DNA of 6,491 bases from a virus (IMGVR_UViG_2695420595_000022:1-6491); one strand, 5' to 3'. Shown: positions 2,374 through 4,215, counted from the first letter of the stretch. Notes: generated by a model from the sequence alone, not told the origin. Translations and numbers: made by a program.

Positions 2374-2574
2374 GCGGCAAAACGGGATGTAGGGACAGGG
2401 GAAAATCAGATACCGGACATGGCCTCTTTTGCCAGTGGTGATGGATGGATGAAATTACCCAACGGTAAAATTCTGCAATATGGTCGAGGCGAGGCTATGC
2501 CGAAATTATCGACGCAAACAATGAGGATTACATTTCCTATCCCTTTCCCTAAAAAAGCGGACTGCGCCATTCTT
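2374..2574 (+). pseudogene. Orphan tail-fibre variable C-terminal cassette fragment, truncated at the IS junction
   Basis: Starting at site A the + strand encodes (GLGE)[19 protein letters not shown]...[14 protein letters not shown]...[10 protein letters not shown], parallel to the cassette after site B ([19 protein letters not shown]...[10 protein letters not shown]...TLPFVFPNK), with nucleotide identity over 2362-2384 vs 4510-4532. Similarity ends around 2557-2575, where the opposite strand becomes IS3-family transposase. The track ORF 2320..2655 is a chimera of flank, site, cassette fragment and IS antisense. Confidence 0.6.
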
Positions 2575-3320
2575 ACCCATTCTGTTTTCAGACTGCGGAA
2601 GAAGCGTTCCATGGGGCTGTTATCCCAGCAGTTTCCCCGCCGACTGACGCTTTGATTTATTCTGCAACGCCAGAGAAGTTGTTGATATTTAAGGCCTGTA
2701 TACTGGCTTCCCTGGTCGCTATGGAACACGACATCCCGGGGTTGGCCACGCGTCTCATAGGCCATCCGCAGGGCACTGCTTATCAGTGCGGTATCGGCAT
2801 GCGCTGACAGACTCCAGCCGATAACCCTGCGGGCAAAAAGATCCATAACAACCGCCAGATAGCACCAGCGATTTCCTGCCCAGAGATACGTAATATCTCC
2901 ACACCATACCCGGTCTGGCTCCGGTACTGCGAACTGACGCTCAAGCAGATTCGGCAGGCTGGTATGCTCCTGACGGGCATTTTTATACTGATGTTTTCCG
3001 GGCTGACAACTGCTCAGGTTCAGATATTTCATCAGACGTCCGGCACGGTAACGGCTCATCGGGACGCCGTTTTGAGTCAGCATTTCAGCCAGAGTGCGCG
3101 CGCCCGCAGAGCCCCGACTTTGGTTCCACGCCCGGCGTATTTCGCTGCACAACCTGACTCGTGCCGGATTAACCGTATCGCGTCGTTTTCGCCAGTACCG
3201 GTAACTGCTGCGGTGTATTTCCAGAGCAGAACACAGGCTGACAACCGTGTGGCTGTCACTTAGTCTGGCGGCTATCGTGAACCGTTCAGCGAGTCGGACA
3301 TTAAGAGCGCGGTAGCCTTT
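2406..3320 (-). CDS. IS3-family transposase OrfB (DDE integrase domain), C-terminus replaced by flanking DNA; probably non-functional
   Basis: -1 frame relative to orfA; contains [21 protein letters not shown] and [20 protein letters not shown], matching the IS3-family DDE core. After EWV (~2574) the frame runs on through non-IS, tail-fibre-antisense sequence to a stop at 2406-2408 ([11 protein letters not shown]...), lacking the conserved C-terminal region seen in e.g. IS3 InsF. The track lists only 2406..3152 from an internal TTG. Confidence 0.75.
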
Positions 3321-3583
3321 TTTAATATCGTATTTTGTTCCTCCAGACGGCGAACTTGCTTTTCCAGCTCGCGGATACGTTGCTGGTCTGGAGTAATGGG
3401 TGTGGCAGAGGGCGTAATACCCTGGCGCTCTCGCCTGAGCTGGCGTACCCAGCTCTCAAGCGTGGTTGAACCGACATTCATCGCTTCACTGGCCTGTCGA
3501 TATGAGTAGCCCTTATCAACAATCAGCTGTGCACATTCCAGCCTGAACTCAGGGGTGAAGGTTCGTTTGGTTTTCTTGTTCAT
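3272..3583 (-). CDS. IS3-family transposase OrfA (HTH / leucine-zipper protein)
   Basis: [55 protein letters not shown]...[34 protein letters not shown] is a typical IS911-like OrfA. ATG at 3581-3583 preferred over the GTG at 3617-3619 used by the track; stop TAG at 3272-3274. Confidence 0.9.
3317..3323 (-). other. Programmed -1 ribosomal frameshift heptamer A-AAA-AAG (OrfA to OrfAB)
   Basis: On the minus strand ATT-TTA-AAA-AAG-GCT (I L K K A) puts A AAA AAG in the zero frame near the end of orfA. The -1 frame is open from here ([14 protein letters not shown]...[24 protein letters not shown]...) into orfB, as I verified by hand translation of 3153-3320. Confidence 0.7.
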
Positions 3584-3603
3584 TAAGTCACCTGTTTTGT
3601 GTT

Positions 3604-4215
3604 GTGGTGAGAATATCACCTTTCATCAGGTGGCCAAATTTAGTGTGCCACTACATCCGCCTGTTATCGGCACTGTTGCCGCCCGGTCCGGCGTGGTCAG
3701 CCAGCGATCCGGCGATTGCCGGTGCGGCACCGTCATTAACCCGTGTTCATCAGCGTGCGGATGCCCTGATGCGGGAGCTGGATCCGCGCACCACCACCGA
3801 ACTGATAAACCGCTGGGAGCGTCTGTGCGGCCTGCCGGATGAATGTATTCCCGCAGGGACACAGACCCTTCGCCAGCGTCAGCAACGGCTGGATGCGAAG
3901 GTTAACCTGGCGGGCGGCATCAACGAGGATTTTTATCTTGCACAGCTTGCTGCCCTGGGCAGACCAGATGCCACCATCACGCGATACGACAAAAGCACCT
4001 TCACCTGCTCATCGGCCTGTACTGACGCGGTGAATGCGCCGGAATGGCGGTATTACTGGCAGGTCAACATGCCAGCTGCCACCAACACCACCTGGATGAC
4101 ATGTGGTGATCCCTGTGATTCCGCACTGCGTATCTGGGGCGACACCGTTGTCGAGTGTGTGCTTAACAAACTCTGCCCTTCGCATACCTACGTAATTTTT
4201 AAATATCCGGAGTAA
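3604..4215 (+). CDS. Phage tail protein, YmfQ/DUF2313-like, 5' end disrupted by the IS
   Basis: ORF with the [13 protein letters not shown]-terminal-type motif and ...[20 protein letters not shown]...[14 protein letters not shown]...[11 protein letters not shown]; immediately precedes the tail-fibre gene, with its stop TAA at 4213-4215 followed by a GGAG RBS. The first ~17 codons of the track ORF (GTG at 3604) are IS-end sequence; native sequence starts near 3656 and no native start codon remains. Family name is from memory of e14-type tail modules. Confidence 0.55.

Follow-up and report, generated by a model that had tools for sequence, protein, structure and literature searches.

An IS911-like element without its right end, joined to a truncated tail-fibre cassette at a 10-bp overlap in a Pin-type invertible region

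IS911 is an insertion sequence (IS) of the IS3 family (IS3 group) known from Shigella and E. coli. It has two overlapping reading frames connected by a -1 frameshift at A AAA AAG, a transposase with a helix-turn-helix (HTH), leucine zipper and DDE layout, and terminal inverted repeats (IRs) of the type TG.AGTGG...TGGCCAC. Its OrfA has 100 amino acids and its OrfAB 382, and the right IR is TGAAGTGGTCAACAAAAACTGGCCACC (PMC2909936). Tail-fibre regions in prophages have described counterparts of their own in the P region of e14 with Pin, the G segment of Mu with Gin and the C segment of P1 with Cin. In these systems a serine invertase adjoins the invertible segment, the crossover sites lie at the boundary between the constant and variable parts of the tail-fibre gene, and the alternative C-terminal cassettes each have their own assembly gene. 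Spontaneous deletions between short direct repeats by slipped mispairing are also well known, the lacI deletions in E. coli being the classic case. Here we describe a 6,491-nucleotide stretch of viral DNA (IMGVR_UViG_2695420595_000022:1-6491, hereafter the window) in which an IS911-like element lies truncated inside a Pin-type tail-fibre region.

The element stops 177 bp short of its right end, where it is joined to a tail-fibre cassette (cassette A) that has lost its 3' part. The features that make up the join are the following, in window coordinates:

2320-2584, + strand: cassette A, a gp53-like tail-fibre C-terminal cassette, 3'-truncated (Pfam PF21882)
2575-2584: junction, a 10-bp overlap, ACCCATTCTG, present alike in the intact cassette and the intact IS
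2575-3655, - strand: IS911-like IS3-family element, nucleotides 1-1081 of 1,258, 100% identical to full-length copies
3630-3655, - strand: left IR, TGTAGTGGCACACTAAATTTGGCCAC, placed by the convergence of four copies with different flanks and by IR alignment
3272-3583, - strand: orfA, 103 amino acids, intact (translation; Pfam HTH_Tnp_1)
3317-3323, - strand: programmed -1 frameshift site, A AAA AAG (IS nucleotides 333-339)
2575-3323, - strand: orfB frame, truncated at the C-terminus, with the DDE residues kept and 55 residues gone

An IS3-family element truncated on its right side had been predicted from the sequence alone, and the comparison with relatives agrees. The 1,081 bp at 2575-3655 are 100% identical in BLAST to three full-length copies from closed E. 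coli genomes (L001, L002 and L016; these labels and those that follow are our own), all of which continue for 177 bp beyond the endpoint in the window. The contexts of the three copies are unrelated: L001 has a P2-like prophage, L002 a prophage remnant linked to ssrA, and L016 an e14 prophage. The ends of the element were set by aligning four copies in different contexts, the fourth being a 92% variant in L005. The full element is 1,258 bp long and is bounded by the left IR TGTAGTGGCACACTAAATTTGGCCAC and the right IR TGTAGTGGTCAAGTAATATTGGCCAC. A natural right terminus at about 2575 was considered and rejected, as the four full-length copies reach the right IR 177 bp further on. Simple insertions of the relatives bear target duplications of 3 bp (AAG in L001, CAT in L005).

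The window copy retains the left IR, orfA, the slippery site AAAAAAG, residues 1-337 of OrfAB and all three DDE residues. It lacks the last 177 bp, which hold the 55 C-terminal codons and the right IR, and the right IR has no match with up to three mismatches across the whole window. These findings support the original prediction in its description of an intact OrfA and frameshift site, a preserved DDE core and a missing right IR. The Pfam rve domain is matched at 94.6 bits in the window copy, and a full-length OrfAB from a relative scores 360.6 bits against the NCBIfam IS3-family model NF033516 (cut-off 160). Two terminal IRs (TG...CA), by which an IS3-family member is recognized, are found in the full-length copies and not in the window copy. 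The latter is a fragment of an IS3-family (IS911-like) member, not a complete member.

The element shares with IS911 the two overlapping frames and the A AAA AAG frameshift, the HTH, leucine zipper and DDE layout and the type of terminal IR. OrfA is 103 amino acids long here vs 100 in IS911. The -1 frameshift at AAAAAAG gives an OrfAB of 392 amino acids (382 in IS911), equal in length to the annotated product of the relatives. Unlike IS911 itself, this is a distinct and unnamed relative, labelled by PGAP only as "IS3 family transposase," and the window copy is without nucleotides 1082-1258, hence without the right IR and the C-terminal 55 residues. The truncated orfB continues into the cassette in antisense and reaches a stop at 2406. 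OrfA and a C-terminally altered OrfAB could still be produced, with no sign of function. The fused orfB (2406-3152, - strand) stops at the same relative position as the authentic orfB, both being 248 amino acids long from an internal TTG; the equal length appears to be a coincidence.

With only the left IR remaining, the fragment is predicted to be immobile and presumably cannot be excised or moved even by transposase supplied in trans from other copies; the original prediction had likewise held the element to be probably immobile. Transposition of the IS911 type needs a paired-end complex, which a single-IR fragment cannot form (PMC2909936).

Cassette A keeps 87 of 136 codons, and its match to PF21882 spans only positions 1-41 of the 84 in the profile. 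From 2376 to 2584 it is 100% identical to an intact 136-amino-acid cassette in the e14 prophages of seven closed genomes. The intact cassette has another 149 bp, after which comes its assembly gene, so the remainder of the cassette module is missing here, as had been proposed. A homologue search with the intact cassette gave only representatives of 90% clusters, not the exact protein, and was of no use for contexts.

In every database match the cassette homology stops at 2584 and the IS homology begins at 2575. The original prediction had put the change in homology at 2557-2575; the change is real, and the exact breakpoint is the 10-bp overlap at 2575-2584. In a three-way alignment, ACCCATTCTG is found in the cassette of L016 and in the IS of L002, both intact. 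No other repeat of at least 10 nt is common to the IS and the 830 bp of cassette A plus its tail-fibre assembly gene (tfa). For a blunt join placed at random, the probability that 10 nt or more overlap is about 6e-6. These alignments directly show the truncation, the position of the breakpoint, the overlap and the occurrence of the 10-mer in both parental sequences. Because the 10-bp overlap is the longest repeat common to both parental sequences, the join is a short-homology join, made in the cell or by software.

With moderate confidence, we read the junction as a genuine deletion of about 0.75 kb between 10-bp direct repeats, made without transposase and leaving an immobile IS remnant. The parental arrangement, the size of the deletion and the event having occurred in a cell are what we infer. 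The parent would have carried, in order, pin, a crossover site, cassette A, the tail-fibre assembly gene, the IS with its right end first, and the truncated ymfQ. In it ACCCATTCTG would have occurred twice in direct orientation, inside cassette A and inside orfB, with 177 bp between the latter copy and the right end of the IS. The two copies would then have been joined by slipped mispairing or (microhomology) end-joining, with loss of the final 149 bp of the cassette, the whole assembly gene, the right IR and the C-terminal 55 codons of OrfAB, and one copy of the 10-mer would have stayed at 2575-2584. As in the lacI deletions, the join retains one copy of a short repeat that each parental sequence contains, and no longer repeat was available. 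Unlike in those deletions, there is only a hint of a parent with the two repeats in cis, from the gapped draft contig L026.

L026 (GCA_001283505.1) is the closest relative of the window. The two agree in gene order, and L026 matches positions 1-2584 and 2671-6438 at 100% identity. Cassette A is intact in L026 and runs into the first 155 bp of the assembly gene, which a single N separates from the IS; the latter begins at the equivalent of 2671 (IS nucleotide 985), in the same orientation as in the window. The cassette is therefore not truncated at 2584 in L026, and the IS is not truncated at 2671 in the window. The L026 contig terminates in garbled sequence at the third crossover site. The layout of L026, with cassette A, the assembly gene and the IS in the same orientation, is what would be expected of the parent before the deletion. 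L005 makes this parent plausible, as it has the same IS family right-end-first just past the same assembly gene. Among closed genomes, this tfa followed by the IS right end occurs only in L005, and there as a 90-92% variant. L001 was also considered as the direct parent, since there too an IS lies next to a cassette beside an invertase. This was rejected, because the match is limited to the crossover site and the IS, and the cassette of L001 is different.

Several observations weigh against a deletion of this kind. The only sequence with the presumed parental order is the draft L026, whose own join to the IS is a single N. The junction is absent from 5,426 closed E. coli genomes, plasmids and phages searched by megablast. 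The exact junction 42-mer is absent from GTDB representatives, JGI metagenomes and IMG/VR, and the fused open reading frames (ORFs; 111, 110 and 248 amino acids) are unrecorded in a large assembly collection by exact look-up. The overall order of the window, with three cassette modules and ymfQ-stf facing away from pin, is non-canonical and absent from closed genomes. Finally, an overlap of 10 nt is the default minimum of a common gap-closing program.

The join stands in a wider region whose features are as follows:

1-1509, + strand: cargo ORF of 502 amino acids, a member of the left block and not part of the IS; no Pfam or NCBIfam family
1739-2293, - strand: Pin-type serine DNA invertase, 184 amino acids from MLIGYVRV (Pfam Resolvase and HTH_7; annotated pinE in relatives)
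2355-2373, - strand: crossover site 1 (pattern search), within a perfect 52-bp inverted repeat
3643-4215, + strand: ymfQ, a Mu gp48-like baseplate gene without its first 21 nt (Pfam PF10076)
4219-4962, + strand: tail-fibre gene (stf)
4503-4521, - strand: crossover site 2 (pattern search), within the tail-fibre gene
4965-5408, + strand, and 5380-5985, - strand: two tail-fibre assembly genes
5982-6491, - strand: silent collar-domain cassette
6441-6459, + strand: crossover site 3 (pattern search)

The pattern search for crossover sites (TTCTCCCAAACCAASGTTT) found three in the window vs none expected by chance, two oriented one way and one inverted. Sites 1 and 3 lie in the perfect 52-bp inverted repeat (2323-2374 vs 6440-6491). 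A serine invertase and inverted crossover sites around alternative tail-fibre cassettes with assembly genes, as in segments of the Pin/Gin/Cin/Hin type, are all present, and 4219-6491 is a complete invertible segment, whose flipped isomer is found in L018-L020. The e14 prophages have a cassette that matches cassette A at 100% identity. Unlike the Pin, Gin and Cin systems, the window has three crossover sites, three cassette modules (one truncated by the join) and an IS fragment inside, and its ymfQ-stf unit faces away from the left-hand pin. Should the arrangement be real, Pin could use the 52-bp inverted repeat to invert the entire 4-kb stretch, including the IS fragment and ymfQ-stf. The end of the window coincides with this repeat, and the L026 contig stops there too.

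On its left side the IS adjoins ymfQ, and homology to intact ymfQ begins at 3652, 21 nt past the start codon. The identical IS-ymfQ junction occurs in L002 and in L017-L025. The flanking tail module appears to have been defunct already, because the IS lies in ymfQ and ymfQ is severed from the baseplate genes. In L002 (5824-7081) a full IS occupies the same ymfQ site without a target-site duplication (flanks GGA and GTG), and a fragment of an autotransporter lies on its right side. Because a complete copy there has no target duplication and has the autotransporter fragment alongside, the L002 locus, even with its complete IS, is one that already went through an IS-associated rearrangement.

The window as a whole is a mosaic of three blocks (1-2374, 2376-2584 and 2575-6491), each of which matches, at 100% identity, a locus that closed genomes have in a separate place. 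The first is identical to the ssrA-proximal end of intact prophages with Mu-like tails, and identity to these relatives stops at 2374, at crossover site 1. Their canonical order is ssrA, the 502-amino-acid gene, pin (-), crossover site, cassette (+), tfa (+), tfa (-), stf (-), ymfQ (-) and the baseplate genes, so that ymfQ-stf of the window, directed away from the left-hand pin, is opposite to it. In closed genomes, the second block (cassette A) is found at 100% identity only in e14 at icd. The third is identical to the ssrA-linked remnant, where the IS is full length, 21 nt into ymfQ, with the autotransporter fragment on its far side. An ssrA-type pin joined to cassette A was found in no closed genome. 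The second and third blocks both occur at 100% identity in three closed genomes, 0.9-1.7 Mb apart; the first block was not found in these three.

The original prediction of a deletion scar joining the tail-fibre cassette to the transposase stands as to the join and the losses; it was not a simple local scar, since three separately located blocks are involved. A single local deletion in one prophage is too simple a picture, because the blocks to the left and right of the join occupy different loci in every closed genome examined and the orientation of ymfQ-stf is wrong for this prophage family. The three closed genomes with both blocks are NZ_CP180607.1, NZ_CP189657.1 and NZ_CP182220.1, and the relative strand of the two loci differs among them. 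Because the relative strand of cassette A and the IS-ymfQ block differs among these relatives, their arrangement implies that megabase-scale inversions between the icd and ssrA regions have probably occurred within this lineage. An origin by homologous recombination between the IS copies that the closest closed genomes have in e14 and at ssrA was also considered and rejected by inference, because the left end of the IS abuts tfa or ymfQ at both loci and recombination between copies leaves the pairing of flanks and ends unchanged.

Crossover sites have also been points of exchange between prophages. One case is L023 (CP148297.1, a closed genome; 8933-18302), which is identical to the window through the truncated ymfQ and the constant region of stf as far as crossover site 2. 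Past that site a different cassette, a recombinase and tail-sheath genes follow, 95.6% identical to the P2-like prophage of L001. L023 is an exchange between two different prophages exactly at a crossover site, in a closed genome.

The 502-amino-acid ORF has exact copies between ssrA and pin in L006-L015 and L026. Its sole match is weak, to an LmuA-like protein over C-terminal residues 368-485 (PADLOC, E=0.007). In related prophages the position between ssrA and pin holds McrA (L016, L027), Avs2 (L005) or unrelated genes of 343, 114 and 70 amino acids (L018-L022), and it looks like a variable cargo or defence slot.

Among the other ways in which the join could have arisen, an assembly artefact has a substantial chance of being correct, although short of an even one. 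The cassette module and the IS would then both be complete in the real genome, a short-read scaffolder having chained the flanks through a collapsed IS repeat and a gap closer having merged the edges at the first 10-nt overlap. Cassette A and tfa would really lie beside one IS copy and the truncated ymfQ beside another, and the window and L026 would both be imperfect pictures of a region beyond the resolution of short reads. Scaffolding and gap closing are known to leave misjoins and indel errors in bacterial drafts, and GapFiller closes a gap once its extensions overlap by a default minimum of 10 nt (PMC3446322), which is exactly the overlap in the window. The other resemblances to false gap closure through IS repeats (of the SSPACE/GapFiller type) are that the sister draft has an N in the same IS and that the junction occurs in one assembly. 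L026 has the same order with a different join, the N lying between mid-tfa and IS nucleotide 985, so that each assembly contradicts the junction of the other, and the end of the L026 contig is garbled at the third crossover site. Further, closed genomes have the three blocks, at 100% identity, in separate loci, and no other sequence searched has the junction. However, GapFiller rejects closures that are more than 50 nt off the estimated gap, and such a closure would be hard with about 0.75 kb truly missing, which sets this case apart from the usual false closure. It would require read pairs linking contig edges truly about 0.75 kb apart, a distance they could not bridge, and a link from the cassette to the right-hand part of the IS needs the IS right end near the cassette A module, whereas the closest closed genomes have the left end at tfa. 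The 10-mer is also the longest repeat available, so a biological deletion would be expected to land there too.

The remaining explanations place the event in the cell. We think it improbable that a microhomology-mediated inversion or complex rearrangement between inverted 10-mers in distant loci (e14 at icd and the ssrA-linked remnant) made the join and left a reciprocal junction, of the IS right end with the 3' end of the cassette, elsewhere in the genome. Cassette A and the IS-ymfQ block do lie about 0.9-1.7 Mb apart in the three closed genomes, on opposite strands in two of the three; the varying orientation indicates that large inversions occur in the region, and L023 attests to an exchange between two prophages at a crossover site. 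Inversion between 10-bp repeats megabases apart is, however, very unlikely. The window has the ssrA-type pin and the 502-amino-acid gene by cassette A, not mcrA-pinE, so its lineage already differs from those closed genomes, and L026 suggests that cassette, tfa and IS are local neighbours. The original prediction had attributed the losses to an IS-adjacent deletion or IS-mediated rearrangement, and here we depart from it, as a junction made by transposase seems most improbable. Intact copies of this IS3-family member are active in the species, with many insertion sites and 3-bp target duplications, and the full L002 copy without a target duplication at the same ymfQ site points to an earlier IS-associated rearrangement at the locus. 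But transposase acts at IS termini, and adjacent deletions start at an intact IS end and their products keep that terminus. In the window the join sits 177 bp inside the IS, the terminus and 55 codons are gone, and the 10-bp repeat is internal to both orfB and the cassette. That Pin itself joined cassette to IS at a secondary (pseudo) crossover site has a negligible likelihood. The junction is only about 200 bp from a genuine crossover site, in an invertible region with three of them, but nothing like TTCTCCCAAACCAASGTTT (up to three mismatches) lies near 2575 in the window, and the shared 10-mer ACCCATTCTG is unlike the AAACC-NN-GGTTT core.

In another reading, the right end of the element is a recurrent breakage point, where transposase cleaves abortively at the right IR, and resection and microhomology end-joining follow. 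We consider this very unlikely. It is just as doubtful that, under such recurrent breakage, the junctions in the window and in L026 are two independent deletions straddling the right end in sister strains. If true, E. coli would here offer a natural instance of alternative end-joining started by transposase.

Members of the same IS911-like family also occur in the invertible tail-fibre segments of three other prophages (L005 7664-8921, L016 9778-11035 and L001 6406-7663). Only 14 bp separate the insertion sites of L005 and L016, at the 3' end of a tail-fibre assembly gene, and the two insertions are in opposite orientations and of IS variants that are 92% identical. The IS911-like element appears to favour the place where two tail-fibre assembly genes converge in invertible segments, and this 3' end is a possible hot spot for insertion.

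The finding is ordinary prophage decay or possibly an assembly error. If the join is an artefact, it calls for caution about joins inside IS copies in draft genomes, especially those with overlaps of about 10 nt, which should first be checked against the reads. If the join is real, it would be one more case of prophage and IS decay by short-repeat deletion, with an immobile IS fragment left in a Pin-invertible tail-fibre region that is itself defunct. More can be learned from the region around the junction than from the junction itself: prophage tail-fibre modules are traded there at crossover sites, and the same IS has inserted into them repeatedly.

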